Source: Alphaproteobacteria bacterium (GTDB lineage Bacteria; Pseudomonadota; Alphaproteobacteria; RF32; CAG-239). Taken from it: a DNA stretch of 64,000 nucleotides. This document shows, piece after piece, positions 34,161 to 58,433 of this stretch. A program made the translations under genes and the position numbers. The notes under the pieces were generated by a model, which made no database searches, had not been told where the DNA came from, and worked only from the letters and a program-made list of their open reading frames with translations. The DNA lies in contig JAZSQL010000054.1 in the NCBI GenBank assembly GCA_045537965.1, positions 15,224 through 79,223 of the forward strand, in the 5' to 3' direction. Every line of letters begins with the position of its first letter. Position 1 is the first letter of the stretch.

Positions 34161-35858
34161 CTAATAGTTATTGCTTCGTCGTCTAATGGTAGGACAGCGG
34201 ATTCTGACTCCGTCAATCTTGGTTCGAGTCCAGGCGAAGCAGCCAGCTTGGACAGGGCTAGCGGAAATTTTCGCTAGCCCTTGATTTTTAAGGCTTTCGG
34301 CGAGTTCGATTGATTTCATATACCCAATTTGTACATTTTCGTTATCATTTGCCTGTAACCTTTGTCCTGCAACGGTTTGCATCTGTTCGTGCGGCAACAC
34401 TTTATTTCCTTTCGGATTGTTAATATTTACAAATTCATTAAACGGAAATCTTAATTTGTAACTGATTACGCCTTCGGTCAAAGTAATCTTTTCAAATACA
34501 AATTTTAAGAGAAGTCTTTTCATTTCATAATTAGATGATTTTTCAAAAAAGTATCCTGCTTGTGTAGCAATATCCAATAGTCCTAAAATTGTATCATCAA
34601 AGCAGATATCTGCTTTTTCATGAGAAGCTATTTTCCTTTTAATGCGTTCTATTTTTAACTGTATATCGTTCCGTTTTGTATCAAATGACTCTCTATCCAG
34701 TTCACCATCAAGCCTTAAATCAAACAATGTATCCATCTTTTCTTTGAGTTTTTCTTGTTCACCTTTAAGCCTTTTAATCTCTTCGGAATTGAATTTTCTT
34801 TCAGATGCTTTGGCTGTTTTGAGTTCTTGTTGTAGTTCTGTTATAATATTTTCAGGTAGTCTTATACAATTTAAAATTGAGCTCACACGACTAGTAAACT
34901 CTTCTTCACGAATATACATTCTTGTTTTATCTTTGCGCCAGCATGCTACATAGCTGAATATTCCTTTTTTTAATTCACACTGACATATTTTGTTAGTTAT
35001 GCCACAAGTAACTAATCCACGAAAAAGAAAATTCTTTTCAGATTTTTTTGTACATTGTCCGCCTCTAATTGCTTTCTGTTTTTGGCATAAATCCCATAAT
35101 TCTTTGCTTACTATCGGTTTATAAACATGTGGCATAATGCCTCTTTTTGTGCGCATTTCACCATAATAAAAAGGATTTCCCAATATATTATGCATAGAAT
35201 TAAGACAAATCTCTCCGCCTTTGGCATTTCTTAATCCCATCATATTTGCATAATGTTGTAGCTCGGAAACACTTGTATTGCCCAAAGAATAGATTTCATA
35301 ACATTTGCGAATAATTACAGCTTCTGATTCTTTAGGACGGATAAACTTTTTTCCTCGTTCATCTGTATAATTTTCATATCCGATAGGAGCTTGTCCTGTT
35401 ATTTCGCCATTTCTATTCTTTTGTTCAGTAGAGCGACGAACATTCTCGGACAGTTGCAAAACGTAAGCTTTCGCTCCCATTACCGAGAAATCCCATCTCA
35501 TAATATCAACAGATGTAGATTTACTATTTAATACCATTCCCTCACGATAGAAATGAAGCTCAATTTTATCTTGTCGCATCAACTCATCAAGCAACACACT
35601 TTCTTTGAAACTTCTTTGTACACGGTCAACTGTATCAGCAACAATAGCTATGGTTTCTTTCTGTCTTTTACAAAAGTTTATCATTTCCATAAATTGTTTA
35701 CGCTGACCATGAGTAGAACTCTCAACGATTTCAAAGGTTTTGATAACTTCTAAATCTTTTCTGTCAGCATACTCATGTAAACGATTACTTTGAGCAAGCA
35801 GGCTCAAGCCTTCTTCCTGCATCTTCGTTGAAACACGGGTTAGTATTATTGCCTTCAT
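34161..35858 (-). CDS. Large serine recombinase (integrase)
   Basis: N-terminal resolvase catalytic domain (ILTRVSTKMQ with Ser nucleophile) plus a large C-terminal recombinase/zinc-ribbon/coiled-coil region. ORF as tracked reads antisense through tRNA-Gln; the true stop may lie earlier. Confidence 0.82.
   Translation of the reverse strand: MKAIILTRVSTKMQEEGLSLLAQSNRLHEYADRKDLEVIKTFEIVESSTHGQRKQFMEMINFCKRQKETIAIVADTVDRVQRSFKESVLLDELMRQDKIELHFYREGMVLNSKSTSVDIMRWDFSVMGAKAYVLQLSENVRRSTEQKNRNGEITGQAPIGYENYTDERGKKFIRPKESEAVIIRKCYEIYSLGNTSVSELQHYANMMGLRNAKGGEICLNSMHNILGNPFYYGEMRTKRGIMPHVYKPIVSKELWDLCQKQKAIRGGQCTKKSEKNFLFRGLVTCGITNKICQCELKKGIFSYVACWRKDKTRMYIREEEFTSRVSSILNCIRLPENIITELQQELKTAKASERKFNSEEIKRLKGEQEKLKEKMDTLFDLRLDGELDRESFDTKRNDIQLKIERIKRKIASHEKADICFDDTILGLLDIATQAGYFFEKSSNYEMKRLLLKFVFEKITLTEGVISYKLRFPFNEFVNINNPKGNKVLPHEQMQTVAGQRLQANDNENVQIGYMKSIELAESLKNQGLAKISASPVQAGCFAWTRTKIDGVRIRCPTIRRRSNNY
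34172..34245 (+). tRNA. tRNA-Gln (anticodon CTG)
   Basis: Acceptor stem tgcttcg/cgaagca. Anticodon stem gcgga/uccgu with loop uuCUGac. T-arm ggttcgagtcc. Encoded CCA. Confidence 0.88.
34240..34603. repeat. Left copy of a long imperfect direct repeat (tRNA 3' end, terminator and integrase 3' end)
   Basis: Aligns with 58152-58433 base by base, with scattered mismatches and an in-frame ~81-bp segment present only in this copy and bounded by gttcg. Confidence 0.8.
34255..34289 (+). terminator. Rho-independent terminator after tRNA-Gln; duplicated at 58166-58200
   Basis: Perfect 9-bp stem gggctagcg/cgctagccc followed by ttgattttt. Confidence 0.6.
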
Positions 35859-36083
35859 TTTCTAAAATCTCCTGTCGTAGCATTAATAAACATTTTGCAA
35901 AACCTATTAAATGCCTTGCACCTTGTTCTAATTGTGCATCCGATAAAGGCTCTGATGATATGTTCCGCAATGCTTCTTTTAATTTGGCTGTCATTTTATC
36001 TTATCTCCATGCAATCCTCAAGCCAAGGCATTGTTGTTTTTTATGCAAGGGCTTATTATACAAGCCCCTGCATAAAAGGTAAT

Positions 36084-36599
36084 TTATCCTTGTTGGGTAA
36101 AAACACTTGTTGGAAGTCCCATTGCTGATAGCATTGGCTCTGTCGCAGCAATAGTTCTTATTTTTGCTTCTTCAGCTTTTTTCTCTCGTTCTGCTTTCTT
36201 TTTATTGCGACGACGTTCATTAGCCTCTTTTTTGCGAGCATTGGCATTATCAATCTCTTTTGCCAAGAAATCTGTAATGTCCTCATCAAATCCCTTATTG
36301 GCAACGCTGGTATAAAAATCTGCCAAAAATTGAAGCTTTTGTTCTGTACTCAACAAATCCAAAGAATAGCGAACAATACGTTTACCACCGAGACGAAGCG
36401 TAAAAATGGAATTTTTCTCGGTATCCGTCATCAATTTATTCATACGGTTTGATATATCCCAACTATTATCCTTAAAGTTTTTCATATTCTCGGTCAAAAG
36501 TTTCAAAATACGCTCACGAGCTTTTTCAAGTGTAAGCAATCCTTCATCTTTTGAGGTTTCAAGCTTGTTAGCATTATATTTCATTAAAAATTGTTTCAT
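36084..36599 (-). CDS. Hypothetical protein with a basic C-terminal tail
   Basis: 171-aa ORF carrying an RRRNKKKAEREKKAEE basic stretch. Confidence 0.45.
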   Translation of the reverse strand: MKQFLMKYNANKLETSKDEGLLTLEKARERILKLLTENMKNFKDNSWDISNRMNKLMTDTEKNSIFTLRLGGKRIVRYSLDLLSTEQKLQFLADFYTSVANKGFDEDITDFLAKEIDNANARKKEANERRRNKKKAEREKKAEEAKIRTIAATEPMLSAMGLPTSVFTQQG

Positions 36600-36715
36600 T
36601 TTATTTTCCTTTCAAAAATTAAATTAGTTAAAAAAAGAGCATAATAATTCTGTATGGCATTTAGGCATCCCTTCACGCCATTTGGGTTAAAATTGTTGGT
36701 TTTGTTAGATTTTAG

Positions 36716-36955
36716 TTATTTTTGACAGTCCATAACATAAACCACATCGGTTGGTTCAAACGGACATCTCGTTTCGGTTAGGTAAAAAGGCTCACCAAGA
36801 GCTGATATAAAAGCATAAACACCTTGCGGAGAGTTTATGACTTCGCTGTATCGCTTCAATTCCTTAAAATTACAGTTTGTAAAATGCTTGGAAGCTATAA
36901 CGGATATTTCATCCGGTAAAAAATCAGCGACTTTTGCTACAACTTGATAATTCAT
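36716..36955 (-). CDS. Hypothetical small protein
   Basis: 79-aa ORF. Confidence 0.3.
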   Translation of the reverse strand: MNYQVVAKVADFLPDEISVIASKHFTNCNFKELKRYSEVINSPQGVYAFISALGEPFYLTETRCPFEPTDVVYVMDCQK

Positions 36956-36966
36956 TGCAAGCCCCC

Positions 36967-37373: not shown

Positions 37374-39023
37374 ATGTCATGGATTAATATTAAAGATTAC
37401 CAATTTAAAGAAGATACTTATATGAGTGTGGAAAAAGTTGATGAAGCAATCCCCTCATTAAATCAAAACAATATTAAAAATTTTAATTTTAAATTTCAAA
37501 ATACTGTTATTGATAATCTTTTGGTAAGAGAATATGCAAAAAGTTTAGCAGAGCCTGTACAACAAGGCAATTTCATATATTGTGATAACGTAGAGCAACT
37601 TAAAGAATTTTGCATGTTGTTCATGATGCGACTATCAAAAGTTTTTTTGACACTTAAAAATCATAACATTGAAAATGTAGGTAATTCTATCAAAAATTTA
37701 ATGGCTTGTTATGATGAATATGTAGAAGAGACTGGAAATGATTGTAAAGCTTTTCAGTCTGTGAAGGAGTTCCTTTTTAGCCTTCCTTCTAAAGAAGAAG
37801 CTCCCATAACAATTAAGAATGAATATTTAGACCAATATTATTCTTATTATGCTGATGCACTAAAAACATTCTTGTCAATTTTAGCGACAATATTCAATTA
37901 CAATCTAAAACAGCCCACTTTATCTTCAAAAGAACTAAAAATATTTGAAAAAAAGGGATATACTCGCAACTTTATAGCCAATAATGAAATCAAATTAAAA
38001 AAGTTTTTAGCTGATTTTGATGAAGAATATTGCTTTGCAAAGCAAGAGCCTATCACAGGTTTTATACATAATTACGCAGATATAGAGCTAAAATCATTAG
38101 GCTTTAACAATTTGTGCTTACATTTGAAAAATATGAAAATCGGCTCAAATGAAGAAACTCTTCACTTATTTACGTTTATTGATTACGTAGATATTAGGAC
38201 AGTGATTTTTGAAAACTGTTGTTTTAGTGAAGCAGAGCATCTATCTTTAAGAAGCAAATCATTTTTGTTCAAAAATTGCACATTTAATTGCAAACTTCGT
38301 TATTGGGAAGCGAGTATTCCAAAAAACTTTCAAACAGTAATAAGTTTATTAAAATTTGAAAGCTGTACGTTTAATGATAGCTTTGAGGTTGATAAAATTA
38401 AAAAGGGATGCTATTCAGCTATTATCTTAAGAAATTGTACTTTTTCAGAGCGTGCAAACTTTTTACTATCTAATATCTCTAAATTGAAAGTTATTTTTAG
38501 TAATACAATCTTTGGTGGTAAAGTATCCTTTACAGATGTGAACTTTCATGATGGACAATTTTCTAATATCGTATTCCTAAACGAATTTAGAGTTAAGAAC
38601 GTTACCTTTACATCCCATATTGATTTCAAACAACTCATATTTTCTGCAAATGTTGTAAAGACTATGAGTAATTCTATTCGTTCATTTGTAAAATCATTAG
38701 AAGATAATGGGTTTAATGATTATGCCGCAGAGTTAGCTGAATTTTACTTAAATGACTTAAATAGTAGCAAAAATAAAGAAGAATTTGATATTGCTATCAA
38801 ATCTGATTGGGTCAATATTAAACAAGCTGCAAGAATTTTAGGGCTTTCATATAATACCTTGCTGACGATGAGAAAAGAAGACAAAGCTACCGGAATTATC
38901 AGAATTCCTTATATTGGTGATGGCAAAAGTACGAAATACTATTATCCGCTTCTTATTGCTTACAAAAGTAATGATATGGCTTTAGTTAAAAAACTTGAAA
39001 AAGAAATGAACAGCAAAAAGTAA
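37374..39023 (+). CDS. Pentapeptide-repeat (beta-helix) protein with an N-terminal unknown domain and a C-terminal excisionase/MerR-like HTH
   Basis: Residues ~280-430 show strict 5-residue periodicity with Phe/Leu at the centre (FENCCF, FKNCTF, FESCTF, LRNCTF, FSNTIF, VSFTDVNFHDGQFSNIVF). C-terminus IKQAARILGLSYNTLLTMRKEDKATG is an HTH_17-like motif. Confidence 0.6.
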   Translation: MSWINIKDYQFKEDTYMSVEKVDEAIPSLNQNNIKNFNFKFQNTVIDNLLVREYAKSLAEPVQQGNFIYCDNVEQLKEFCMLFMMRLSKVFLTLKNHNIENVGNSIKNLMACYDEYVEETGNDCKAFQSVKEFLFSLPSKEEAPITIKNEYLDQYYSYYADALKTFLSILATIFNYNLKQPTLSSKELKIFEKKGYTRNFIANNEIKLKKFLADFDEEYCFAKQEPITGFIHNYADIELKSLGFNNLCLHLKNMKIGSNEETLHLFTFIDYVDIRTVIFENCCFSEAEHLSLRSKSFLFKNCTFNCKLRYWEASIPKNFQTVISLLKFESCTFNDSFEVDKIKKGCYSAIILRNCTFSERANFLLSNISKLKVIFSNTIFGGKVSFTDVNFHDGQFSNIVFLNEFRVKNVTFTSHIDFKQLIFSANVVKTMSNSIRSFVKSLEDNGFNDYAAELAEFYLNDLNSSKNKEEFDIAIKSDWVNIKQAARILGLSYNTLLTMRKEDKATGIIRIPYIGDGKSTKYYYPLLIAYKSNDMALVKKLEKEMNSKK

Positions 39024-39163
39024 TAAGTTATTTAGACTTATTATAAATGTAGTAAATAGCAAATAAATTAAGTTGAACTTATAAATAAAATACTTGAAAT
39101 ATTAATAGGGATTAGATAGCATTTCTCTCAATAGATATTTTTTAATAAATTCGGAGAATGTAG

Positions 39164-41395
39164 ATGGCTGTATTAGAACAAAAAATCACTATTGAAGATT
39201 CTTGTTCTATTGTTAAAAAAGCAAAAAGTCCTTTTTCACCAATTAAGGAAGCTATAACAAATGCCATGGATTCTATTGTAAAAAGGCAAGAATCGGGTAT
39301 TTCGTTTATACCTAAAATATCCGTTATTTTAAACTTTATAGAAAAAAAAGATTTATATAATCCTGAAAATTCTAAATATTTGTTATCGTCAATTTCAATT
39401 GTTGATAACGGGGAAGGATTTATTCAAAAAAACATTGAAAGATTTAAAAATCTAGGAGAAAGAAGCAAAGGATTAAATAATAGAGGAACTGGTAAAGTAC
39501 AATTATTTTGCCGTTTTAAACAAATTGATATAGAAAGTATTTTCTATGAAGATAATAAATGGAAAAAATTTACATCTACATGGAAAAGAAATGGTGATTA
39601 TACAGACAGTATTTCATACATAGGTAAAGAAAATGATAACAAAACTACTGTAATGATGTCTTATTTAATCAATGATAAAGAACATGAATATTATGGAGAG
39701 TATTTAAAAGATATTGAAAATTTAAAAAGAGATATATTAAAAAATTTTTTATTGCGTTTATGGTTAGGCTCATCATCTACAAATCAGTCTATTGAAATAA
39801 AAACAATGATTAATGAGCATGAAAAAGATAGTTTTATTTATAACGAAAAAACAATACCCGTTCCTGATAAAGAAGATACTATTAAGATACATACACAAAA
39901 AGCTGATATTTATAAAGACACAAAAGGGAAAATAAAAGTAACATGGCTGTCAACAGAACCATCATATACTTTAAATTTTTATAGATTCAAGCTAAATGCC
40001 TCTGAAATTAATGAAAATGGAGTATATATTTGTAGTAAAAATATTGTTGTAGAACCTTTTAGCTTTTCTGCAGTAAAAAAAACAGCTAATTTTGATGGGG
40101 CGCGTTATATATCATGCGTAAGTGGCAATTTATTAGATGCATCAGATAATGTTAGTCAATCAGTGGAGAGTTTTAATTTCCCATTAAAAAGAGAAGTAGA
40201 AAAAGATTTAAAAGAAGAAACAGGAGAGTTGTTTAATCAAGAAAATATTTTTGTTTTTTGGGATGAGATAAAAGAAAAAATAAATTTAGTTTTAGAAAAA
40301 AATTATTCTGACATTCAGGGATTAAAAGAAAGTAGAGAAAAAGATATTTTAAAAATTGCTGCTCGTTATGGCATATCTTCTGATATTGTAGATGAAGCAG
40401 ATATAGAATTTAATGATACTGAAGAAAAAACTATAGAGAAACTTTTTCAAGCTCAAGCTCGTAAATTTGCAAAAGAAAATATAGAAATCCGACATACGTA
40501 TGAAGAATTAAATAATCTTGAGTTGCAAAACTTAGACCCTACAAGCAATGACTATAAAGACAAGTTTAGAGCTGTTTCTCAAAAGTTATTGCAAAAAATA
40601 CCTCAACAAAATAAGGATGAACTAACTCGTTATATCATTAGAAGGGATATGGTTGTAAAATTGCTTGGCTTGGCTCTCAAAAATGAATTAGCCATTCAAA
40701 AAGATTGGAAAGACAAGAAAGCTCGTGGTATCGATGTAAAGAGACAAAAGGAAGCTATTTTTCATGATTTGATTTTTAGAAGAAAAATGAAAGGTGTGCC
40801 GAATGATTTATGGATATTAAATGAAGAGTTTGTTCATTTTGATGGTTATTCAGACATAGAACTAGAGAATCTGGTAGTTAATGGTGAAAAATTATTGCAA
40901 GATAATATTGATATATATGAAGCATTGAAATCTGTAGGTATAGAAAAAGATACATACTTAAAACAACGTCCAGATATATTTTTATTTCCAGAAGAAGGGA
41001 AATGTATATTAATAGAATTCAAAGCTCCTGATGTTGATTTATCTGAGCATACAAACCAAATTTCAAGATATGCAACATTGATAGCAAATTATTCTCGTAG
41101 ACCTAAGCAATTTACACAATTTTTTGGTTTTTTAATTGGAGAAGAGATAGACTTAGTTAATTTAGATAGGTCTTTATGGAAGAAAGTTCCTTTTGGAAAT
41201 TATCGTATCTATCCTAATAAAGAAATATTATCTATAGGAGAAGTAGAAACAACTATAGCTAATATATATCAAGAAATTATACCTTTTTCTGAAATAGCTA
41301 AAAGAGCTAAGATACGAAATAAAAGTTTTGCTGAAAAACTAGGAATAGAAGAAAGTGAATTAGAAAAAATTCAAAATCTAAACAATATTCTTTAA
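39164..41395 (+). CDS. GHKL-family (Bergerat fold) ATPase fused to a C-terminal PD-(D/E)xK-like nuclease motif
   Basis: N-box EAITNAMDS, G1 box IVDNGEGF and G2-like NRGTGKVQLF near the N-terminus. Near residue 600, RPDIFLFPEEGKCILIEFKAPD matches the PD-x(n)-ExK pattern. GGAGAATG RBS. Confidence 0.65.
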   Translation: MAVLEQKITIEDSCSIVKKAKSPFSPIKEAITNAMDSIVKRQESGISFIPKISVILNFIEKKDLYNPENSKYLLSSISIVDNGEGFIQKNIERFKNLGERSKGLNNRGTGKVQLFCRFKQIDIESIFYEDNKWKKFTSTWKRNGDYTDSISYIGKENDNKTTVMMSYLINDKEHEYYGEYLKDIENLKRDILKNFLLRLWLGSSSTNQSIEIKTMINEHEKDSFIYNEKTIPVPDKEDTIKIHTQKADIYKDTKGKIKVTWLSTEPSYTLNFYRFKLNASEINENGVYICSKNIVVEPFSFSAVKKTANFDGARYISCVSGNLLDASDNVSQSVESFNFPLKREVEKDLKEETGELFNQENIFVFWDEIKEKINLVLEKNYSDIQGLKESREKDILKIAARYGISSDIVDEADIEFNDTEEKTIEKLFQAQARKFAKENIEIRHTYEELNNLELQNLDPTSNDYKDKFRAVSQKLLQKIPQQNKDELTRYIIRRDMVVKLLGLALKNELAIQKDWKDKKARGIDVKRQKEAIFHDLIFRRKMKGVPNDLWILNEEFVHFDGYSDIELENLVVNGEKLLQDNIDIYEALKSVGIEKDTYLKQRPDIFLFPEEGKCILIEFKAPDVDLSEHTNQISRYATLIANYSRRPKQFTQFFGFLIGEEIDLVNLDRSLWKKVPFGNYRIYPNKEILSIGEVETTIANIYQEIIPFSEIAKRAKIRNKSFAEKLGIEESELEKIQNLNNIL

Positions 41396-41436
41396 TTAAT
41401 AAGCAGACATAACCCTCCATATAGAATGTAAAAGAA

Positions 41437-41466
41437 TTGACATTTTTTAACATTTTCTCTGTAATT
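41437..41466 (+). promoter_or_regulatory. Sigma70-like promoter (TTGACA, 18-nt spacer, TGTAAT) upstream of the 286-aa gene
   Basis: Consensus -35 hexamer and a near-consensus -10. Confidence 0.4.
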
Positions 41467-41517
41467 GGCTATTTTCCTAGTATTTTATTTTGACTGTCTT
41501 ATGTGGCAAATATAAAA

Positions 41518-41555
41518 TGTTAAACTTTATTAAAGTTGACTATGAAGTTTAACAT
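41518..41555. promoter_or_regulatory. Perfect 11-bp inverted repeat (ATGTTAAACTT, 16 nt spacer, AAGTTTAACAT); candidate operator
   Basis: Lies between the putative promoter and the start of the 41560 ORF. Confidence 0.4.
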
Positions 41556-41559
41556 TTGA

Positions 41560-42420
41560 TTGATATTTACAAGGATTTACATTATTATAACAAAAAATAT
41601 CATAGAGAGGATTGTTTTGCCTAATACAGTTGTAAAATTGAAATTAAAATTTACTGGAGCCGATGCAAGAAACCATCGATTAGATTTTTATGATGCAACC
41701 TACTCACTATATGGATTTGCTCGTGCATTACAAATAACAATGGATTTATTTGTAAATAAAAGAGTAATAAAAAAGGCAAACACAACTAAAAACTTTAAAA
41801 GTTATATGCTTACCTCTAAAGAAGGAAGTTTTGAGCAGGATATTCTTTATTTGTTAGCATCAGGAGTAGCTGTTAATGCTGTTTATGATTTTATTAAATA
41901 TGTATTTAAACAAGCTATTAGCTCCGAACGGGTTCGTTTGAATAGACAACAAAGTTTAATGCACACAGAATACGAGCCATATTTCGATAAAATAACAGAA
42001 GTTATTAAAAATCCATTACTTGATGCTCACAGAGTTATAAAAATGAATCCATCTTGTAAAATATCTTTGATTGCGGAAAAGGAAAATAGTTCCAATAGTA
42101 CTTTAGTAAATTTTAATTATGATACTTATTGTTATCTATCCCAAGAAGAAAATAACGATGATATAATAGTAGAAACAGGAAATATAACTAAATATAATGT
42201 ATTAACCCAAAATGGTAGAGTTTATTTGACTTCATATGGACGAGTAATTTCATTTTCTCTTTGTAAAAACATAAGCGATGATGCAAAAAATTTAATAACA
42301 TTATCTTTACATAATAGGAACAATGGTCTTCCAGATATTCTAAACATAAGTTATAAAAAAGTATTATCTTCTAATAATAAAATTGTAAAAATAATTATAG
42401 TTGATTGTTCAGAATTATAG
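41560..42420 (+). CDS. Hypothetical protein, third gene of the candidate module; start uncertain (TTG at 41560 or a downstream TTG/ATG)
   Basis: 286-aa ORF co-oriented with the two upstream genes. GAGAGGA RBS precedes an internal TTG at ~41617. Confidence 0.45.
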   Translation: MIFTRIYIIITKNIIERIVLPNTVVKLKLKFTGADARNHRLDFYDATYSLYGFARALQITMDLFVNKRVIKKANTTKNFKSYMLTSKEGSFEQDILYLLASGVAVNAVYDFIKYVFKQAISSERVRLNRQQSLMHTEYEPYFDKITEVIKNPLLDAHRVIKMNPSCKISLIAEKENSSNSTLVNFNYDTYCYLSQEENNDDIIVETGNITKYNVLTQNGRVYLTSYGRVISFSLCKNISDDAKNLITLSLHNRNNGLPDILNISYKKVLSSNNKIVKIIIVDCSEL

Positions 42421-42432
42421 CGTTTGTATATA

Positions 42433-42810
42433 TTAGTCATGTACTTTTAACTTCTTCAAAATCTGTTTCACTTCATCATTCGGAATATATTTTTCAGTAT
42501 CATCATATTCAAATTGATGATTGATTAGTTTTCCCTTCTTAATATAATAAATGTTAATTGAGTTATCGCCATAGGATTGATGATAATGAACTAAAGGTAA
42601 ATCTTTATAAGTAAATCCATTGTTCCAAAGGTTAATCAAATTGCCGAGTGTGATTTTATCTATTCTGTATGAATAATACGGACAGGCAAAAGCGTTAATT
42701 ATCAAACCTGAAATGACAAATTCGGCACAAGTCCTATTTTGTAACTTGTGCCGATTATTATAAATCCACTCACAATGGTTTATAAAACACTTTTTATCTA
42801 TGATTGGCAT
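42433..42810 (-). CDS. Hypothetical protein
   Basis: 125-aa ORF translationally coupled to the recombinase gene upstream. Confidence 0.4.
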   Translation of the reverse strand: MPIIDKKCFINHCEWIYNNRHKLQNRTCAEFVISGLIINAFACPYYSYRIDKITLGNLINLWNNGFTYKDLPLVHYHQSYGDNSINIYYIKKGKLINHQFEYDDTEKYIPNDEVKQILKKLKVHD

Positions 42811-49970: not shown

Positions 49971-49983
49971 TTATTTCTCCTAT

Positions 49984-51042
49984 CTATTGTAAATATTCTT
50001 TAATATTATTGTTTCTCGGCAATGTAATGGCTATTCCTGAAGGATATGGATTTGTTGGAGCAAAATCATTTACAACAACTCTTGCTGCATGATTCATTCC
50101 CATAAGCATTGCATATGGCTTTATGCCGTTTTCATTTAAGATTTTTTCTAAATCTGTTCTAAATTCTTCTGGACGAGATGTTGTTATTACAATTTGAGCG
50201 CCATCATCTTGTAATTTTCTAATTGTTTCCATATTTTCAGGTAAAGTTTCAGTGTTGTTGTACCAATTACGTTTTCCATACTTTCCGCAATTTTTCATCA
50301 AAACACCATCTACATCAACAAAGTATGTTCTATGTTTTTTTTGTACTTCTTTCCACTCTGATAAAGTACCCCAATCATCATATGAAAGAGCTAATATTGA
50401 TGAAAATACGTAATTATTTGAAGCCAACATATACGAAATCACATGACTTATATACATTTCACCTGATATTTTCTTTGTAAGCATTTCATCATATGCATTT
50501 ATAAAATCTAAAGCATTTTCGAAACAATAAACGCCCAAGCATATAATATTCGAAACCACCTGTTTTTCTATAATGTCATGGATAATTCCCTGTTCATTTA
50601 CTATGAGAAAACTTTTTCCCGGTATGTTTGTAATATCAGGATGTTCATGCAAATTGTAACCAACAATTGAATTTTTAATTTGTTTGTTAAAGTTAACCTC
50701 TACGCGATTATCCGAATCTTTAATAACAAATGCACCCTCTACATTCATTTTCTTTAGTGTCAAGTAAACCGTCTCACTAGCTGACGATGTAAAATCATCT
50801 AGCATACAAATTTCTATTTTGGGATTGTTCTCAAAAACTTGCTCCATAATAAGCTTAGCTTCATATTTTTCATCATGAGGCTTAACGATAGTGATGATTA
50901 TTCTATCAAACACATCTACGTTAATTTTCTCCATTGATTTTTCAATCATTAACTTGCCATCTGGACGAGTTAACATGTATTTGGGTTTCATATTAGGAAA
51001 ACGACTGGATTTTCCGGCGCATGGAATAATTAAAGTATTCAT
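49984..51042 (-). CDS. Bifunctional sugar/phospho-substrate nucleotidyltransferase (MobA/LicC-like) with a HAD-like phosphatase domain
   Basis: N-terminal IIPCAGKSSRFPNMKPKYML (NTP-transferase G-loop). C-terminal FVDVDGVLM (HAD motif I DxDG) and ITTSR (motif II). Confidence 0.65.
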   Translation of the reverse strand: MNTLIIPCAGKSSRFPNMKPKYMLTRPDGKLMIEKSMEKINVDVFDRIIITIVKPHDEKYEAKLIMEQVFENNPKIEICMLDDFTSSASETVYLTLKKMNVEGAFVIKDSDNRVEVNFNKQIKNSIVGYNLHEHPDITNIPGKSFLIVNEQGIIHDIIEKQVVSNIICLGVYCFENALDFINAYDEMLTKKISGEMYISHVISYMLASNNYVFSSILALSYDDWGTLSEWKEVQKKHRTYFVDVDGVLMKNCGKYGKRNWYNNTETLPENMETIRKLQDDGAQIVITTSRPEEFRTDLEKILNENGIKPYAMLMGMNHAARVVVNDFAPTNPYPSGIAITLPRNNNIKEYLQ

Positions 51043-51923
51043 TATGCCTCCATTTCATTTATTGAGTTTAAAACGCTTTCAAGAGCATTATTTAAGAAAA
51101 GTATTGTTGTTTGGTCTTTAGCGTATGGATAAATTCGCAAGACATTTAAAAGTAAAATATGATATATTGTAATGACATTTTGCTTGCCATTTTCCATGGC
51201 ATATAAATTATCTAGCAAAGCTTGTTTAGCTGTTGCTAGGCGTAAATTAAGATTATAATTTCGTTCTTGATGTCTATATGACCAGCCTAAATCAATATCT
51301 TGTAAAAGTTTTGCTACATCAATCATCCAAGAGTTATAAAATGAATCTAATAAATCAATTACGTAAATGCCTGATGACGAAAGTATAATATTCTCTAATG
51401 TTAAATCACCACAACAAGCTGAAAGAGGAACATTTTGGAAGTTAAATTCTTTTAACTTATTTAGAGATTTCAGAATTAATTCATTGTTTATATCGCATGT
51501 TTTGTATAAAGATAAAATTTTTTCCTTAAAAATACTTTCACTTTTATCCGTAACTACACTTTGTTTTATGGGTAACGACTTAAATAATAGCCCTATCAAA
51601 TCAACTATTTCTTTTATTTTAATTTGATTCATATATTCTGACATACATATGCCATTAATGAATTCCATATCAAAATAAAAAAGATTATTATTATCATAAC
51701 CATAACGTAAAACTTTAGGTGTTTTTACGGCATCAAGCTTAAACCACTTTTGTTTAGCACATTGTTTCTTTAATCTGTTGTTATATGACACATTTCCAGC
51801 ATCTTTACGTAAAAAAAAGACATCCTTTTCTTTATAAAGATTAAGTTGGCAACCTGAATGCCCTTTTAATTCCTTAATATGTTCAAAATTTGTTAACAAT
51901 AAATATTTTTTATCAACAATCAT
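51042..51923 (-). CDS. Choline/ethanolamine-kinase-like phosphotransferase (APH/LicA family)
   Basis: Brenner/APH-like motifs CCGDLTLENIIL and VIDLLDSFYNSWMIDVAKLL. 293 aa. Confidence 0.55.
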   Translation of the reverse strand: MIVDKKYLLLTNFEHIKELKGHSGCQLNLYKEKDVFFLRKDAGNVSYNNRLKKQCAKQKWFKLDAVKTPKVLRYGYDNNNLFYFDMEFINGICMSEYMNQIKIKEIVDLIGLLFKSLPIKQSVVTDKSESIFKEKILSLYKTCDINNELILKSLNKLKEFNFQNVPLSACCGDLTLENIILSSSGIYVIDLLDSFYNSWMIDVAKLLQDIDLGWSYRHQERNYNLNLRLATAKQALLDNLYAMENGKQNVITIYHILLLNVLRIYPYAKDQTTILFLNNALESVLNSINEMEA

Positions 51924-54091
51924 TTTATAATTTTCCTTAGATTTTGTAATGATTGCTCATAAATACTATCAGATAAAATTTTAAGATTTTTCTTCTTGTC
52001 TTGATACTCTTCTTCTGACATTTCAATAGCTTTAATCATTAACGATGCCAAATCTTCCTCATAAATCAAAGAATTTTTATCATTAAAACCATAAAAATCA
52101 GCAAATTTTTGCTGTATTAAGCACGGAATATTAAATCCGTATATCAGTTGAGCTGAGCCTGTAACACCGGTTGTTATATATCGATTATGTTGAGAATTAT
52201 TACAATCTAATAATGGCAAAAAGAAATCCGCTGTTTCCACTTGCTCATACATTTTTGGAAAACTCAAAAATCCTTTAAGGTTAAAATAATTTCGAAACTT
52301 ATTTGGAATATCATTTAATCTTCCTCTGCCAATAACATTTATTTTACAATGATATCCGTGTTGACATATAATATCTACAGCATCAATCAAAAGACGATGA
52401 TTTTTTTGTTCAGGATTTATTCCGCCAACTACAATAAAAGTGGTAGCCTTATTTTTTTTATGTTTTTTATAAGTTCCGAAATAATGCGGATTTACATATA
52501 TCCCCTTACTAAATTTACCAAGAGTAACAATTTGTTTATTTTTATCAAATTCTTGCAAATTAAAAAGAGGGATATCTGTAATATCATGTTCAACAATTAA
52601 AGTTTTTGATTGTCCTTTTGGCCAAAAACCTATTTTATCTTTTAATGAAATTATCTTTGAGTAGTCATAAGTTAATAAAAATCTGGAACTAGTTACAAAT
52701 ATAAATTTATATTTTTTAATTTTAGCTTTGTTAAAAAAATATTTCAAAAATATTGGACAGAAGGAAAACAATTTAATTTGTTTAGTTTCTATTCGTTTAA
52801 ATGGGTGCTCTTTAACATTCTTTTCAGACATTAAAACATCAACATTGTACCCTAAATCAAGCAAATATTTGGCATATCCGACACCTACTTCAGCATGACA
52901 ATCATTGGGTTCTACTAATAGAACACTATTACCACGCACTGATGTAAAACAGAATCTTGCTAAATTTAATAACGATTTTAATGATAATAAACTTAAGGTA
53001 TTTTGAACCTTTTTTCTGGTGTCTTTTTTCCAAATACAACAGGTTAAAATTTTTATAATTCTCTTTTTTAGCTTAATTTTGTAATATATTTTAGAAATAG
53101 GTATGTTTATGATAGAAATATTTCCCGTTTCCTTATTCTTAGAAAATAAAGGAAAGCAAAATAATTTAATCTTCTTGCCATAGCCATTTTTTTCTTTCCT
53201 CCATTTCAAAATATTGAGAAAATATAATAGTCGTAATCTCCTATAAAATGGTGTTATTTTTGCATATTTCCAGAAATACACACTATAAGGGACATTTGGA
53301 GTATTCCAAGGTTTTCGAGAGGATGCGTAGTGAAATAGAAAAGGAAATTTTTCTGCGTTGAGCATTTCTTGATTTTGGGATACGTCTTCTGTGCGATGTG
53401 TACAAAAACTGTATTTATAATCCAAGATTTTATAGTTATTAGCAAAGACAATATTTAATACATCTAAATCTGGATATTGAAGATCTTTTTCGTACTCATA
53501 TGTGGCGTCGATAAGCTTTTGGGTGATATTATTTTTACGCCAATAATCGCAATTAATAAGCAGGTTTCCTGATTGAAAATATTTATGTTGCGGTGTAATA
53601 CCAAATTTCTTTTTACGCATTATATGGTTATCAATTCCCTCTAGAGGCATGCCAATTTCTTCTATAGGTGCTGCTAAGCCAAAATTTTCTACGTTTATAT
53701 CATAAAAATCTTTAATATCCGCATTAAAAATAACATCAACATCAGAATAAATAGCCTTTGATATTTCTGGTTTTAGAAGAGGTATTAAATAACGATTATA
53801 CATTGCAAGTGAATAATGATTACTTGTTTTAGCATTGGGGAAAAATAACTTGACATCAACATTAAGATATTCGACATCAAAATTTTTCCATCGTTTTTTC
53901 AAACTAGCAATTTTTGATTTTGCTGATTGGGAAACACCACTATCCAAAATATAAAATGAAACAAATGACTTTGTATGATCCATTATAGAGGCTATTGTAG
54001 TGGCAATAAATGGGGCATATTTTTCATCTGATGCTAAAAAAACAGGTATTTTTTTTTGAATCATTTTTTGCTCCAATTTTCTAAAATCCAA
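51920..54091 (-). CDS. Two-domain glycosyltransferase: N-terminal GT8 (LPS glycosyltransferase-like) and a C-terminal GT-B-like domain
   Basis: N-terminal IPVFLASDEKYAPF..YLNVD..YSDVDVIFNADI (GT8 DxD). 723 aa. Confidence 0.65.
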   Translation of the reverse strand: MDFRKLEQKMIQKKIPVFLASDEKYAPFIATTIASIMDHTKSFVSFYILDSGVSQSAKSKIASLKKRWKNFDVEYLNVDVKLFFPNAKTSNHYSLAMYNRYLIPLLKPEISKAIYSDVDVIFNADIKDFYDINVENFGLAAPIEEIGMPLEGIDNHIMRKKKFGITPQHKYFQSGNLLINCDYWRKNNITQKLIDATYEYEKDLQYPDLDVLNIVFANNYKILDYKYSFCTHRTEDVSQNQEMLNAEKFPFLFHYASSRKPWNTPNVPYSVYFWKYAKITPFYRRLRLLYFLNILKWRKEKNGYGKKIKLFCFPLFSKNKETGNISIINIPISKIYYKIKLKKRIIKILTCCIWKKDTRKKVQNTLSLLSLKSLLNLARFCFTSVRGNSVLLVEPNDCHAEVGVGYAKYLLDLGYNVDVLMSEKNVKEHPFKRIETKQIKLFSFCPIFLKYFFNKAKIKKYKFIFVTSSRFLLTYDYSKIISLKDKIGFWPKGQSKTLIVEHDITDIPLFNLQEFDKNKQIVTLGKFSKGIYVNPHYFGTYKKHKKNKATTFIVVGGINPEQKNHRLLIDAVDIICQHGYHCKINVIGRGRLNDIPNKFRNYFNLKGFLSFPKMYEQVETADFFLPLLDCNNSQHNRYITTGVTGSAQLIYGFNIPCLIQQKFADFYGFNDKNSLIYEEDLASLMIKAIEMSEEEYQDKKKNLKILSDSIYEQSLQNLRKIIK

Positions 54092-54507
54092 GAAGATGAA
54101 TTGGGCTTAACTCTTCCTGAAACAGAAGTTCCCACATTATACTTAATTTCAATATTTAATGATTGACACGTTGGAATTTCGGGGATGTTATCTGCAGTCC
54201 GATCTCCACCTTTAGCAAAAGTAAGATTTGCCGTAGGATATTTTTGTCGTGCTCTTTGGAGCCCATCGCAAGCAGTGTTGTCGGAATCATCAAAAACAAT
54301 TACATCTACAACACCTTTAATATTTTCCATAATCATTCTACGTGTTTCAAAATTCATAAAAGGCTTTCCTTTTTTACGAGTTAGCCATGCATCAGAATTA
54401 AGAAGAACAATAACACCATCGGAATTTTCACGACTTTCGATAATGTTTTCTATATGTCCTTCATGTAGTGGATCAAATCCTCCGCTAACGATGTATAAAA
54501 TAGTCAT
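54061..54507 (-). CDS. Cytidylyl/adenylyltransferase-like protein (HIGH-motif nucleotidyltransferase, RfaE domain II / TagD-like)
   Basis: IVSGGFDPLHEGH (HxGH motif) at the N-terminus. 148 aa. Confidence 0.7.
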   Translation of the reverse strand: MTILYIVSGGFDPLHEGHIENIIESRENSDGVIVLLNSDAWLTRKKGKPFMNFETRRMIMENIKGVVDVIVFDDSDNTACDGLQRARQKYPTANLTFAKGGDRTADNIPEIPTCQSLNIEIKYNVGTSVSGRVKPNSSSWILENWSKK

Positions 54508-54511
54508 AACT

Positions 54512-55480
54512 TTAATCCTCTGATAAACGACAGTTGTTTTTTTGTGTTTTGGTTAACCAATAATATATGATTCTGTTTTTAATGGATAAATTACGTGGTC
54601 TAAAAATACCTTGTTTTTCCAGTTCTTTTAAAACAGGAAGATATTGTGTTAGCCATTTATTATAATTCTTCTTATCTTTTTTCTTAGTGAACTTAACTAC
54701 ATAACCAAATAAGCGTTTTGCGATATAATGTTCCAAGTCTTTTTTCGTTTTTTTATCCAATGTATTATTATCAAACATACTAGAAAGTTTAATTGCAATT
54801 AAAAGCTCGTCATCCAATCTCTTTTTGGTTAATGGTTTGGTCATAGCACTATTTTCTCTAGTGCGATAAAAATACATATCCGAATGAATATAAACTGCAT
54901 ATTTTGCTCTATGGAGTACCTGATAAAGGAATATCAAATCTTCTCCGACAGACAAATCTTCTGAAAATGTTAAATTTTCAAGCAAATTCTTACGATACAA
55001 TTTATTCCATATAGACGATACTATTTTAGGCTTTTGATGTTGTACATAATGATCAAAAGGTTTGTCGTAAATTTTCTCTGACGTCTCAAAAAAGTTCCAT
55101 TCTGCTTTATTTTCACCTTTCTCAAAATCGCACCATGCAAATCCAGCTTCTGATCTTTTTTGTAAAGCCTCTAACATTTTTTCTAAGAAAACAGGGCATA
55201 TTTCATCATCGCTATCAATAAAGGAAATAAAATCTCCATTTGCATGTTGCAATCCATTGTTTCTAGCTGCAGAAACGCCTTGATTTTCTTGATATATTAT
55301 TTTAAAACGACTATCTTTTCGTGCATATTCATCTAAAATAGCACCACAATTATCAGGACTTCCATCATTAACACAAATTGCTTCCCATTCACAAAATGTT
55401 TGTGCAAGAACAGAATCTAAGCATCTTTTTAAGTATTTCTCTACTTTGTAGCAGGGAATTATAATGGAAACCTTAGGCAT
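54512..55480 (-). CDS. Family 2 glycosyltransferase
   Basis: VSIIIPCYKVEKYL..NDGSPD..DSDD motifs. Confidence 0.85.
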   Translation of the reverse strand: MPKVSIIIPCYKVEKYLKRCLDSVLAQTFCEWEAICVNDGSPDNCGAILDEYARKDSRFKIIYQENQGVSAARNNGLQHANGDFISFIDSDDEICPVFLEKMLEALQKRSEAGFAWCDFEKGENKAEWNFFETSEKIYDKPFDHYVQHQKPKIVSSIWNKLYRKNLLENLTFSEDLSVGEDLIFLYQVLHRAKYAVYIHSDMYFYRTRENSAMTKPLTKKRLDDELLIAIKLSSMFDNNTLDKKTKKDLEHYIAKRLFGYVVKFTKKKDKKNYNKWLTQYLPVLKELEKQGIFRPRNLSIKNRIIYYWLTKTQKNNCRLSED

Positions 55481-56477
55481 TACAGCTCCTTTTGTTTTCT
55501 AATTTTCTTAAGCGATACATAACTGTGTTTGGAGCAACGCCATACACTTGACCTATTTCTTTATAGGTCATACCTTTTCTGCGCATTTTGATAATTTCTT
55601 TATCTAAGCCAAATAGCTTGGTTTTATATTCAGCCATCTTATTGGCTCGGGTTAGCTCCATTTTGCGAATTTTTGCTCCAATCCAAACAGGATGAGCATT
55701 AACTTTTTCGCCGATTTCTTGTAATGAACGGCCTTGTTCGTACATTTTCTTTATCAAGCGTTCATCTTTGGCTAATTTACTATTGATTTTGATATCAGAT
55801 AAAGGACGAGATAAATTAAGTTCTTTTATTTTGGTTGTAACCGTCATAAATGAACAGTTTAGTTTTTTTGCTATCTCTTCTACTGACAAACCTTTGTTAA
55901 ATAAACGTCTAATGGTATTCTCTTTACCATCAAGTTTTTTTACTACAGGAATCTTAATTTCATAAAGAGCTAAAAGATTAAGAACTGTTTGTGGATTTAC
56001 ATTATATCTTCTTGCTACTTCCGCTTTAGAAATTCCAGAATATAATAACTCCAAAATCTCATCTAAATAGATTTCAAGACAATTATATTTGTGTTTATTT
56101 TCTGGTTTAATTCCTGCTTTTTTGTTCTCTGTTCTAACTTTTAATGCTTTGGCTTGTTGTTCTATAACCTCTTGTGGTGGGTTATAAATACCAAGACGTT
56201 TCCTTCTTGTGAGTAATGTTGACGAATGTATGTTTAACTTTTCCGCTATTTCTCTGTAACTTAAACCTTGTTCTTCAAGTGATAATATATCTTCCTTGTC
56301 AATATTCTTTCTTCTTAAACGAGGTTCTCTTTTTAAGCCAAGCTCATTAATTTTATTGCATAAGGTTGTTTTACCAATAGAAAGCTTCTCAGCTATTTGC
56401 TCCAAAGTTAAATCTGAGTTAAACAGCTCTATAATGTGTGCGTTTGTAAATGATGCAGAGGTTGAAGCGTTAATCAC
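55473..56477 (-). CDS. Protein composed of six tandem resolvase-type HTH repeats
   Basis: Six ~50-aa repeats, each ending in an HTH such as IAEKLSIGKTTLCNKINELGL, IAEKLNIHSSTLLTRRKRLGI, VARRYNVNPQTVLNLL, IAKKLNCSFMTVTTKIKELNL, IGEKVNAHPVWIGAKIRKMEL, IGQVYGVAPNTVMYRLRKLE. Confidence 0.6.
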   Translation of the reverse strand: MINASTSASFTNAHIIELFNSDLTLEQIAEKLSIGKTTLCNKINELGLKREPRLRRKNIDKEDILSLEEQGLSYREIAEKLNIHSSTLLTRRKRLGIYNPPQEVIEQQAKALKVRTENKKAGIKPENKHKYNCLEIYLDEILELLYSGISKAEVARRYNVNPQTVLNLLALYEIKIPVVKKLDGKENTIRRLFNKGLSVEEIAKKLNCSFMTVTTKIKELNLSRPLSDIKINSKLAKDERLIKKMYEQGRSLQEIGEKVNAHPVWIGAKIRKMELTRANKMAEYKTKLFGLDKEIIKMRRKGMTYKEIGQVYGVAPNTVMYRLRKLENKRSCNA

Positions 56478-57114
56478 TAGCTATCCCTCCACTAATCATT
56501 TTCAATTCAGGGTATTGTTGCAGGTATTTAAATATCAGCGAGATGCTACAACCAATAGTTTTAGCTATTTGTTTTTTTGTTTTTCCTTCGTGATACAACT
56601 GAATTATTTTATATTTGTTGCGTTCTAATATGGTAGATTTACATTTTTGCCCTTTGACAAAACCTAATATAGCGCCTTGATCTTTTTTGTCTTTTAAGGC
56701 TTTTTTAGTTATGGTAGAAACCATAGAATTACGGATATCTATTGATAGTTTAATCCCATTAAGAAGTTGAGTTGTTTCGTTAGAAGAATCGAATTTGAGG
56801 TTTTCTTTGACACTTATTAATTCAAATCCGTTTGAAACTAAAAATTCTATATTTTCTACAATTGTTACTAATTTGCTGCCTAAACAGGCTATATTAGCCA
56901 CAATGAGCGTATTTTCTTTGGAATTTATATTATCCTTAATGTTTTTGATATCCGGGTCATTGATGAATATATCAATATTATATGCATTATTACGAGCATA
57001 TTGATTTACAATGTCTCGTTGTTCATCTGCGCTTATATTCCTTTGGTTGTTATCCAAATATCCAATAATCACTATGCGCCCCTTATAACAATAAATGCTT
57101 TCGCCATATATCAA
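56470..57114 (-). CDS. Resolvase/invertase homolog lacking the catalytic serine and DRLGR motif (likely non-catalytic); TTG start
   Basis: Starts MIYGES.. but reads GYLDNNQRNISADEQ where YxRVSTxxQ is expected, and IACLGS where SRLGR is expected. C-terminal HTH (KKQIAKTIGCSISLIFKYL) is retained. Confidence 0.55.
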   Translation of the reverse strand: MIYGESIYCYKGRIVIIGYLDNNQRNISADEQRDIVNQYARNNAYNIDIFINDPDIKNIKDNINSKENTLIVANIACLGSKLVTIVENIEFLVSNGFELISVKENLKFDSSNETTQLLNGIKLSIDIRNSMVSTITKKALKDKKDQGAILGFVKGQKCKSTILERNKYKIIQLYHEGKTKKQIAKTIGCSISLIFKYLQQYPELKMISGGIASD

Positions 57115-57304
57115 CGTTTTTGGCGAGGGGTTTTCTTTGTTTTTTCAAAAGGCTACGATTTTTTAAGAAAAGCTTGGATTTGTTGAAATTTTCCTTGCTT
57201 TATTAAATTTATTGGATTAAGGATATTTGTTATGTAATCTAGACGTTGGTTTATGAAGAGTGTCTATTTTATATAGGTTTTCCCTTAGAAATATTGGTTA
57301 TTCT

Positions 57305-57330
57305 TATAAATAGTTATGTAACTATTTGTA
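57305..57330. promoter_or_regulatory. hix/res-like 26-bp site: 12-bp inverted half-sites around a 2-bp centre (TATAAATAGTTA tg TAACTATTTGTA)
   Basis: Located 10 bp upstream of the invertase ATG, in the 226-bp region between divergent resolvase-family genes. It also overlaps a TATAAAT -10-like box. Confidence 0.35.
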
Positions 57331-57340
57331 AGGAACTGAT

Positions 57341-57964
57341 ATGATTTATGGATATTGTAGAATAAGTACGAATCACCAACAGGTTTGTAATCAACGACAC
57401 GAAATTCAAATATTTGCCGATAAAAATAATATAAAAATTGATAAGTGGATTGAAGAAACAATCTCTTCTAAAGAAGCATTAACCAATAGAAAACTGGGAA
57501 AAATATTAAAAAAACTCAAAAAAGGCGATATTTTAATTGCATCTGAACTTTCTCGTTTGGGGCGAAATTTGCTTGAGGTTATGGGAATTTTACAAAATTG
57601 CCTCGAAAAAGACTGTCAAATCTGGACTTTGAAAGAAAATTATAGGCTTGGAGCGGATATTCAATCAAAAGTTTTGGCTTTTGCATTTAGTTTAGCAAGC
57701 GAGATAGAACGCCAACTTATTTCAGAACGCACTAAAAATTCACTTCAAAGACTAAAAGATGAAGGAAAACATTTGGGCAGACCATATGGTTTTAGCTACA
57801 AAAAACTACAAAAGAAGCACAATAAGATAAAAGAGCTATTGGATAAGAATGTATCAAAATCAGAAATTGCAAGGCTTATGGGGTGTACTTGGTCTACTTT
57901 GAATAGATATATAAATGAGGCAATAATAGGTAATCAATTACAAGATGTAATTTCAGAATCGTGA
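57341..57964 (+). CDS. Serine recombinase of the resolvase/DNA invertase family
   Basis: MIYGYCRISTNHQ (Ser nucleophile), ELSRLGRN, and a C-terminal HTH (SKSEIARLMGCTWSTLNRYI). 207 aa. Confidence 0.85.
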   Translation: MIYGYCRISTNHQQVCNQRHEIQIFADKNNIKIDKWIEETISSKEALTNRKLGKILKKLKKGDILIASELSRLGRNLLEVMGILQNCLEKDCQIWTLKENYRLGADIQSKVLAFAFSLASEIERQLISERTKNSLQRLKDEGKHLGRPYGFSYKKLQKKHNKIKELLDKNVSKSEIARLMGCTWSTLNRYINEAIIGNQLQDVISES

Positions 57965-58027
57965 TGAAGCTGTTATTTCATCACAGTTTTGGCTTTTTCT
58001 CATTGTACTTTTAGTCCTGATTTTATT

Positions 58028-58433
58028 TTATGCAGCAAATAAACTTCTTATTAATTGGACTTGTTCTTTCATTTCCAATATTTCTGAACGGTGATTAACA
58101 AGTACACAATAAAGTTGGGCTGATTTTTGTTCTACATATTCCTCTTTCTGCCAGCCAGCTTGGATAGGGCTAGCGGAAATTTTCGCTAGCCCTTGATTTT
58201 TAAGGCTTTCAGCGAGTTCGTGCGGCAATGCTTTGTTTCCTTTCGGAGTGTTAACATTTACAAATTCATTAAACGGAAATCTTAATTTGTAACTGATTTT
58301 ACCTTCAGTCAAAATAATGTTCTCAAATACAAATTTTAATAAAAGTCTTTTTAATTCAAAATTTGATGATTTTTCAAAAAAGTATCCTGCTTGTGTAGCT
58401 ATATCTAATAATCCTAAAATTGTTTCGTCAAAG
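58028..58433 (-). pseudogene. Remnant 3' portion of a second serine-integrase gene
   Basis: Encodes ..ISYKLRFPFNEFVNVNTPKGNKALPHELAESLKNQGLAKISASPIQAG, matching the last ~100 residues of the 34161-35858 integrase. No N-terminal catalytic domain. Confidence 0.7.
58152..58433. repeat. Right copy of the long direct repeat (tRNA-Gln 3'-end-like cagccagcttgg, terminator hairpin and integrase 3' end)
   Basis: Co-linear with 34240-34603 but missing the in-frame ~81-bp segment. Confidence 0.8.

Follow-up and report, generated by a model that had tools for sequence, protein, structure and literature searches.

We analyzed a 64,000-nucleotide stretch of an Alphaproteobacteria bacterium genome (GenBank assembly GCA_045537965.1, contig JAZSQL010000054.1, positions 15,224 to 79,223; hereafter the window) and find that positions 34246–58151 very probably constitute a single mobile island (E1) that owes its movement to its own large serine recombinase (LSR) and is seated between the CCA end of a tRNA-Gln(CTG) gene and E2, a 0.75-kb relic of an earlier element of the same family, with the long direct repeat around E1 representing homology between LSR 3′ ends (Table 1).

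Contigs of relatives from other samples, retrieved by exact-protein look-up with a MIF-like gene to the right of E1, reveal the same locus in the island-free state. Two of these contigs, L082 and L085, are 98–99% identical to the window on both flanks and join sequence up to 34308 directly to sequence from 58152 onward in blastn comparisons; both carry the same tRNA-Gln gene (window ~34245), which runs straight into the right-hand copy of the repeat. L099 and L100 likewise lack 34246–58151, and E1 is a discrete insertion/deletion polymorphism within one species. The relic in the island-free strains shares with the right copy in the window both the 81-bp deletion and the point of truncation, and because near-identical strains lacking exactly 34246–58151 keep this relic, E1 is a discrete unit and the right copy an older stump. 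The target is (or becomes on excision) the tRNA gene followed by old element sequence, not a virgin attB. These contigs support an earlier reading made from the window's letters alone (the sequence-only reading), which had placed an island at the tRNA-Gln 3′ end and had suggested checking relatives for an empty tRNA-Gln site, found here in L082 and L085. The compositional comparison suggested with it agrees, with a G+C content of 30.8% in E1 against 34.6–35.8%, or ~35%, in the flanks.

The repeat that drew attention to the island consists almost entirely of recombinase sequence. As the sequence-only reading had described, 34240–34603 recurs near 58152 in the same orientation, and alignment of 34240–34308 plus 34390–34603 with 58152–58434 is gapless at 258 of 283 identical positions (91.2%), with 67/69 matches proximally and 191/214 distally. 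The alignment equally reproduces the reported scattered substitutions in the right copy and its loss of an in-frame 81-bp segment, 34309–34389, flanked by GTTCG at 34304–34308 and 34385–34389. Both copies open with CAGCCA, the final six bases of the tRNA, and continue into the hairpin GGGCTAGCGGAAATTTTCGCTAGCCC then TTGATTTTT, matching the predicted order of tRNA end and terminator; the hairpin scores as a 12-pair stem. Where about 100 codons of integrase 3′ sequence had been anticipated in each copy, the minus strand codes for the 3′ end of the same protein over 121 codons on the left and 94 on the right. The tRNA gene is intact, with E1 contributing at most six terminal bases and the terminator, a region (34254–34291) that reads as the peptide GLAKISASP on the minus strand. 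At the far end (58152–58157) the repeated tRNA part is CAGCCA only, six bases, and the remainder is recombinase sequence. The long repeat is homology between two integrase 3′ ends and no att core; the suspicion that it is too long for such a core was right, the true core measuring at most 13 bp.

Comparison of the junctions confines the crossover to this core. Its left boundary is set by the tRNA arm GAAG versus the island right-end arm CTGC, and its right boundary by C at 34253 versus T at 58165, a position at which island-free L085 also has T. At its start, the L085 relic agrees base for base with the right copy in the window, T at 58165 included. Because L085 matches the right copy while the arm of E1 carries C at 34253, exchange was limited to the 13 bp CAGCCAGCTTGGA, a signature of site-specific and not of homologous recombination. 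The predicted circle junction of E1 reads ...CTCTTTCTGC-CAGCCAGCTTGGA-CAGGGCTAGCGG... In contig L098 (ERZ28593539 scaffold_18905) the core and relic are the same but adjoin another right-end arm, TGTTCGCTGCTGTCCTGC, which shows this tRNA-Gln site to be occupied by a different element in another sample. Independent assemblies of other samples give both the island-free junction and a junction with a different element.

The open reading frame (ORF) that crosses the left junction encodes the recombinase. Its element-encoded part spans 34246–35858 and includes the terminator hairpin, beyond which the frame reads through the whole tRNA gene in antisense to end at 34161, so that its final 28 codons (34161–34245) are antisense tRNA-Gln. 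The protein begins MKAIILTRVST, with the catalytic-serine motif TRVST at residues 7–11, and contains a catalytic domain (Pfam PF00239, residues 3–152, E = 3.8e-13), a Recombinase domain (PF07508, residues 178–262) and a four-cysteine cluster in VTCGITNKICQCELKK...YVACW; the zinc-ribbon domain PF13408, recorded for the LSR of the related locus L105, falls below threshold in the window protein. Resolvase and Recombinase domains, a PHROG integrase match, the catalytic-serine motif and the cysteine cluster together identify an LSR and not a tyrosine integrase. The integrase 3′ ends named by the sequence-only reading are thus present in both copies, with the correction that the enzyme is a large serine recombinase and not of tyrosine type. 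An AlphaFold model of the homologue P0032, which has the C-terminus expected of the unintegrated form (mean pLDDT 70.6), consists of a folded body to about residue 472, with strands at 271–305 followed by long helices at 338–402, then a ~70-residue disordered linker that spans the crossover and the hairpin-coded peptide, and finally confident C-terminal helices at residues 541–568. The LSR sequence matches solved structures over the catalytic domains only. Exact-protein look-ups of the annotated recombinase (P0001), an ECF sigma factor and a 94-aa junction ORF returned no matches. Public gene calls in the LSR family (P0001 and many homologues) often start at an internal MQEEG methionine (M13; window 35823–35858), which drops the first 12 residues and with them the catalytic-serine motif. 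The small conserved ORFs beside the LSR gene (35785–36955) have no Pfam or PHROG match, are shared with many related elements and are candidate regulatory or directionality genes.

Integration appears to exchange the C-terminus of this recombinase. The frame of the right copy stays open past CAGCCA for 41 codons into the right end of E1, giving ...HRSEILEMKEQVQLIRSLFAA-stop, and the attachment site thus lies within an ORF whose free and integrated forms encode different C-termini: in an excised circle the LSR would end in a 41-residue tail from 58028–58151, and in the chromosome it ends in the 28 antisense-tRNA codons. About 20 unintegrated homologues end in the same conserved tail, [FY]L.+R.EIL.L+E.L..++..LAA, with a terminal -AA in 16 of the 19 free-form homologues listed; the E1 tail ends SLFAA. 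Comparisons of tail DNA gave 2/1/8 and 5/2/11 changes by codon position, a third-position excess indicating that the tail is conserved as protein. Two LSRs with the free-form tail lie in phage genomes alongside RecT or Sak, lysis genes and tail-fiber-sized large ORFs, one of them also with SSB, which identifies the conserved tail as that of the free (attP) form. The tail may be a functional module missing from the integrated enzyme and, by analogy, may act as a ClpXP-type degron or an interaction helix. Phages L102 and L103, which carry a free-form recombinase, also encode reverse transcriptases suggestive of diversity-generating retroelements, and L088 has a reverse transcriptase and a bAvd-like accessory gene next to the MIF gene, again suggesting such a retroelement.

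The same architecture recurs widely. We detected 749 LSR homologues; a scan of species-representative genomes yielded 80 loci, mostly from uncultured gut or rumen Alphaproteobacteria but also from Rickettsiales and candidate-phyla-radiation (CPR) bacteria, and tRNA junctions were counted over 81 related loci. In 55 of these 81 the LSR ORF ends at, or reads antisense into, a tRNA 3′ end, with the junction at or beside the CCA end and about ten tRNA species as targets (Gln-CTG, Gln-TTG, Glu, Lys, Met, Asn, Ala, Pro, His and Arg). A strong hairpin is present at 42 of the 55 junctions and a T-run at 42; the two occur together in most junctions whose LSR is at least 46% identical, with L031, L042 and L046 as exceptions. 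The junction hairpin is an element-borne tRNA terminator inside the integrase ORF. Antisense-tRNA tails occur in at least 76 of the 120 best homologues. LSRs more than 90% identical to that of E1 are fused to tRNA-Gln genes of differing sequence, showing that this element type moves between hosts. Elsewhere in the window, a tRNA-Asn gene (8792–8866) carries no insertion and has its own terminator behind it; its homologue in L041 bears a related serine-recombinase element, making this gene a second potential landing site in the window genome.

Beyond E1, the stump expands into a recognizable older element. The sequence-only reading had proposed tandem insertion of two related elements with the second almost entirely deleted, a proposal supported by the recovery of this stump in strains without the island. 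E2 extends from 58152 to ~58897 (~0.75 kb) and retains both ends of the old element, nearly all of the sequence between them having been deleted. An ORF at 58414–58686 matches PADLOC REase_III over profile positions 684–742 of 989, and a decayed right-end tail at 58767–58835 reads LQILEMKEQVQMIRCFIVA-stop (tblastn, translation); from 58898 similarity to more distant relatives resumes (L083–L091, 92% identity, blastn). The 58151/58152 junction joins the right-end arm of E1 to the integrase-side arm of E2, formally an attP-type junction, as in a tandem array. A comparable stack occurs at a tRNA-Glu gene. In L001 this gene has no element inserted, and after it comes a 5-kb relic without an integrase gene, the right-end arm of which is joined to an intact LSR with a free-form tail; in L105 and L112 a further element sits at that tRNA-Glu, and its right-end arm abuts the sequence that follows the tRNA in L001. 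We had considered the tRNA-Glu near the free-form LSR of L001 as the attL of that LSR, and rejected this since the site is unoccupied and lies beside an integrase-less relic. L021 with L004 provides a further case of stacking. In the two resolved stacks (the window and L105/L112) the intact element adjoins the tRNA and the distal arm of the target is old element DNA of quite different sequence; the tRNA-adjacent element is the newest in L105/L112, and in the window only if the polymorphism represents a gain. Recognition would rest mainly on the tRNA arm, which each insertion regenerates, and sites already occupied would stay available as targets.

These features fit a model in which the LSR catalyzed insertion of E1, or its excision in the island-free strains, by recombining the E1 attP with a site made of the tRNA arm and old element sequence, formally an attL. 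The tRNA arm would be regenerated with every insertion, allowing new family members to stack beside the tRNA while older ones decay. Integration would at the same time swap the helical -LAA tail for an antisense-tRNA peptide; if this tail is functional, the stability or the directionality of the integrase would follow its integration state.

Several observations weigh against this account. To our knowledge canonical serine integrases such as phiC31 and Bxb1 recombine attP only with attB and not with attL, and the attP × attL reaction suggested by the junction sequences would be non-canonical. A dyad-symmetry search was dominated by the terminator palindrome and gave no central dinucleotide; Pfam and PHROG scans recognized no recombination directionality factor; and a scan for the right-end-arm/core junction in JGI metagenome and IMG/VR data gave 0 matches to an excised circle or free attP of E1. 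The polymorphism may equally reflect a gain by the window lineage or a loss from the others, and the degron idea draws on the C-terminal sequence and on analogy. Finally, the island-free strains are not uniform: L082, L099 and L100 share a third allele that differs in the proximal 62 bp (window-equivalent 58158–58219), with seven differences in the 62 bp past CCA, among them two compensating changes in the terminator stem (GGGTTAGCG/CGCTAACCC), and with ~99% identity farther on. This allele is probably the scar of homologous loss of yet another, third element, and homologous recombination acts at the tRNA-Gln site as well. We had also entertained the L082 allele as a sign that the right copy was converted by E1, which L085 rules out by showing the right copy to be a pre-existing relic.

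The L082 mosaic, a foreign proximal 62 bp on the same distal part, is best read as the product of homologous exchange, and the 283 bp shared at 91% identity by the E1 recombinase 3′ end and the relic would suffice for RecA-dependent recombination between them. That E1 itself was gained or lost in this way, with its precise junction a coincidence, is nonetheless unlikely, since the exchange is limited to 13 bp (58165 T as in L085, 34253 C as in E1), too short for this process, a different element in L098 joins at the same core, and the same CCA junction position recurs in 55 loci at some ten tRNAs. It is still less probable that the 194-aa tyrosine recombinase encoded at 42812–43396 is the true integrase and the LSR mere cargo. 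This protein matches Pfam Phage_integrase (E = 6.6e-20), and tyrosine integrases dominate tRNA sites (44.5% versus 4.9% for serine integrases; PMC7192596), but it comprises a catalytic domain only and lies 8.5 kb from the junction, whereas the LSR gene reaches across the junction, both in E1 and in 55 related loci, and its ORF is completed by the free-form tail encoded at the opposite end of the island. Several related loci have no match to 42812–43396. The repeat also starts just 6 bases inside the tRNA gene and not at the anticodon or T-loop sublocations that tyrosine integrases are reported to use (Williams 2002). Misassembly or misbinning, such as the joining of contigs at a common integrase 3′ end, which the sequence-only reading had named as a possible refutation, is the least credible origin of the repeat even though the source is probably a metagenome-assembled genome and several independent contigs break near the repeat, because the copies are 9% apart with an 81-bp indel and cannot be one collapsed sequence, other strains carry the two E1 flanks as one contiguous sequence, the right junction shows the right-end arm that would be expected there and the conserved tail is in frame within it, and junctions are seen in independent assemblies, L098 having its own right-end-arm/relic junction.

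A broader interpretation of the LSR-driven island is possible, although we consider it somewhat less than probable: the recombinases of gut Alphaproteobacteria, Rickettsiales and CPR bacteria may form a large, essentially undescribed serine-integrase clade that targets tRNA CCA ends, carries attP in its own reading frame, uses the tail swap as a switch between two isoforms and can still target occupied sites. The free element would then produce a tagged or tail-regulated enzyme and the integrated element a tail-less one, an in-built control of integrase stability or directionality, and continued targeting of occupied sites would account for repeated stacking at a tRNA.

The E1 recombinase has the domain set of the phage-type phiC31, Bxb1, A118 and TP901-1 integrases: an N-terminal resolvase catalytic domain, then a recombinase domain and a cysteine cluster accompanied by long helices. 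Its family, like these enzymes, is used by temperate phages, and an exchange confined to 13 bp is compatible with their short att sites and very small common core. Unlike them, the E1 family targets a tRNA CCA end instead of a protein-coding gene, places attP within the integrase ORF, has an additional ~70-residue disordered linker and swappable tail, and apparently uses sites with an old-element distal arm. In SSV1-type archaeal integrases attP also lies within the int gene and the target is a tRNA gene, and integration splits and inactivates the tyrosine integrase gene; here the catalytic body stays intact and only the tail past the disordered linker is exchanged. In mycobacteriophage BPs and its relatives attP lies in a reading frame and the repressor loses an ssrA-like tag on integration (Broussard 2013; Villanueva 2015, PMC4557955). 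Integration likewise alters the C-terminus of a product read across attP in E1, but BPs splits the repressor and uses a tyrosine integrase, whereas in E1 the serine integrase itself is split and the part lost is a conserved ~25-residue helix ending -LAA. Tandem arrays of integrative elements at tRNA genes have been described and explained by regeneration of the crossover core at both element ends (Mageeney et al. 2020, PMC7192596). At the E1 locus, too, elements accumulate one after another at a single tRNA while the older ones decay to relics, with the difference that only a 6–13-bp core and the tRNA arm are regenerated, and by a serine integrase. The same study assigned tRNA use computationally to 14 of 297 serine-integrase elements, a previously unreported association said to need experimental proof (PMC7192596). 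Our literature searches, which are not proof of absence, found no description of this integrase clade and none of tail-swapping in serine integrases.

That an island lies next to what is left of a predecessor is ordinary; the machinery is an unusual and poorly documented serine-integrase variant. Serine integrases are valued in genome engineering for their short sites and directional reaction, and tRNA genes classically serve tyrosine integrases as landing sites. Here a whole serine-integrase clade targets some ten tRNA species. The insertion polymorphism at tRNA-Gln is natural and clean, and three design features are combined: a terminator encoded within the integrase gene, an attachment site internal to the ORF and a tail confined to the free form. 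Should stability or direction be under the control of the tail, integrase activity would be coupled to integration state in a new, self-contained way. If occupied sites are truly accepted, this would explain island stacking and would offer integrases with conserved, portable targets for gut bacteria that are hard to engineer.

Table 1. Features of the tRNA-Gln locus, island E1 and relic E2 (window coordinates)
Feature	Position	Strand	Basis or remark
LSR, integrated-form ORF, 565 aa	34161–35858	-	Pfam Resolvase and Recombinase; PHROG integrase phrog_95, residues 1–503
tRNA-Gln (anticodon CTG), intact, CCA encoded	34172–34245	+	ARAGORN; forms the B (chromosomal) arm at the left junction
Left copy of the 13-bp common core CAGCCAGCTTGGA	34240–34252	+	Crossover must fall within it
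Left copy of the direct repeat (core, terminator, recombinase 3′ end)	34240–34603	+	Includes the 81-bp segment 34309–34389
Island E1, 23,906 bp	34246–58151		blastn joins the flanks across the interval; absent in L082 and L085
Rho-independent terminator for the tRNA, element-supplied, within recombinase coding sequence	34254–34291	+	12-pair stem 34254–34281, then TGATTTTTAA
Small conserved ORFs (69, 171 and 79 aa) beside the LSR gene	35785–36955	-	DNA 70–89% similar to L001, L007, L008, L017 and others
Cargo block 1	37374–47302		Pfam, PADLOC
ABC-transporter ATPase fragment (pseudogene)	47578–47889	-	Pfam ABC_tran, C-terminal part only
Glycan-synthesis operon and 334-aa repeated helix-turn-helix protein	47980–56477	-	Pfam
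Two small serine recombinases	56470–57964		Degenerate copy 56470–57114 (-); 207-aa invertase 57341–57964 (+); Pfam
Right-end (P) arm of E1	58028–58151	-	In frame with the recombinase 3′ end; encodes WQKEEYVEQKSAQLYCVLVNHRSEILEMKEQVQLIRSLFAA-stop
Right copy of the direct repeat, 3′ 94 codons of the older recombinase gene (relic E2)	58152–58434	-	Own core 58152–58164 and terminator hairpin 58166–58193
Rest of relic E2	58435–58897	-	Type III restriction enzyme fragment and decayed right-end tail

The remainder of E1 is cargo. No virion structure, packaging or lysis genes were recognized in E1 (Pfam, ORFs of ~90 aa or more; PHROG, ten ORFs), which makes it an island and not a prophage. The accessory content listed by the sequence-only reading is present as far as ankyrins, a glycan operon, several recombinases and a pseudogene are concerned; the defense-like genes, which lie at 37374–42420, have no PADLOC match. 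These are three co-oriented genes, encoding a pentapeptide-repeat protein, a 743-aa protein with a weakly HSDR_N-like C-terminus and a DUF7946/DUF7947 protein, that lie in the lowest G+C of the island (27–28%) and may form an undescribed defense system. Cargo block 1 further encodes the 194-aa tyrosine recombinase, DUF6626 and DUF3768 proteins, two ankyrin proteins and an AAA_14/DUF4143 ATPase (PADLOC PDC-S01), and its 42812–46422 segment is 90–97% identical to cargo of a tRNA-Glu element in L011.

The glycan operon encodes WavE, an epimerase, GT8, a cytidylyltransferase and GT2, together with a weakly nucleotidyltransferase/HAD-like protein and a 293-aa ORF that has no assignment. A segment of ~131 bp (57115–57245) between the two small serine recombinases, upstream of the helix-turn-helix-repeat gene and the glycan operon, is inverted in L108 and has the ends CAACGT/ACGTTG. 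Its position suggests an invertible promoter that would switch a surface glycan encoded on the island. The module of invertase, helix-turn-helix-repeat and GT2 genes (window 47980–57964) recurs, with an identical invertase protein, in related elements at different tRNAs. L106 and L107 have the same helix-turn-helix/GT2 module with other glycan genes beside the same 207-aa invertase, L105 has the common invertase and a GT2 gene with other glycan genes, and a right-end arm follows the invertase in L105 and L112 and probably in L106. The module appears to be an exchangeable glycan cassette.

Gene order around the locus differs in the more distant relatives. In L083–L091, which are ~92% identical, a tRNA-Cys/tRNA-Asn pair is joined straight to the gene at 58948 (breakpoints at window ~8873–8905 and 58898), and the 50 kb between tRNA-Asn and 58898 is elsewhere or absent, with one breakpoint at the right end of E2. 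We considered this 50-kb span as a larger island and rejected the idea because 8874–34160 holds prfC, secA, PFOR and other core genes; the difference is a synteny break.

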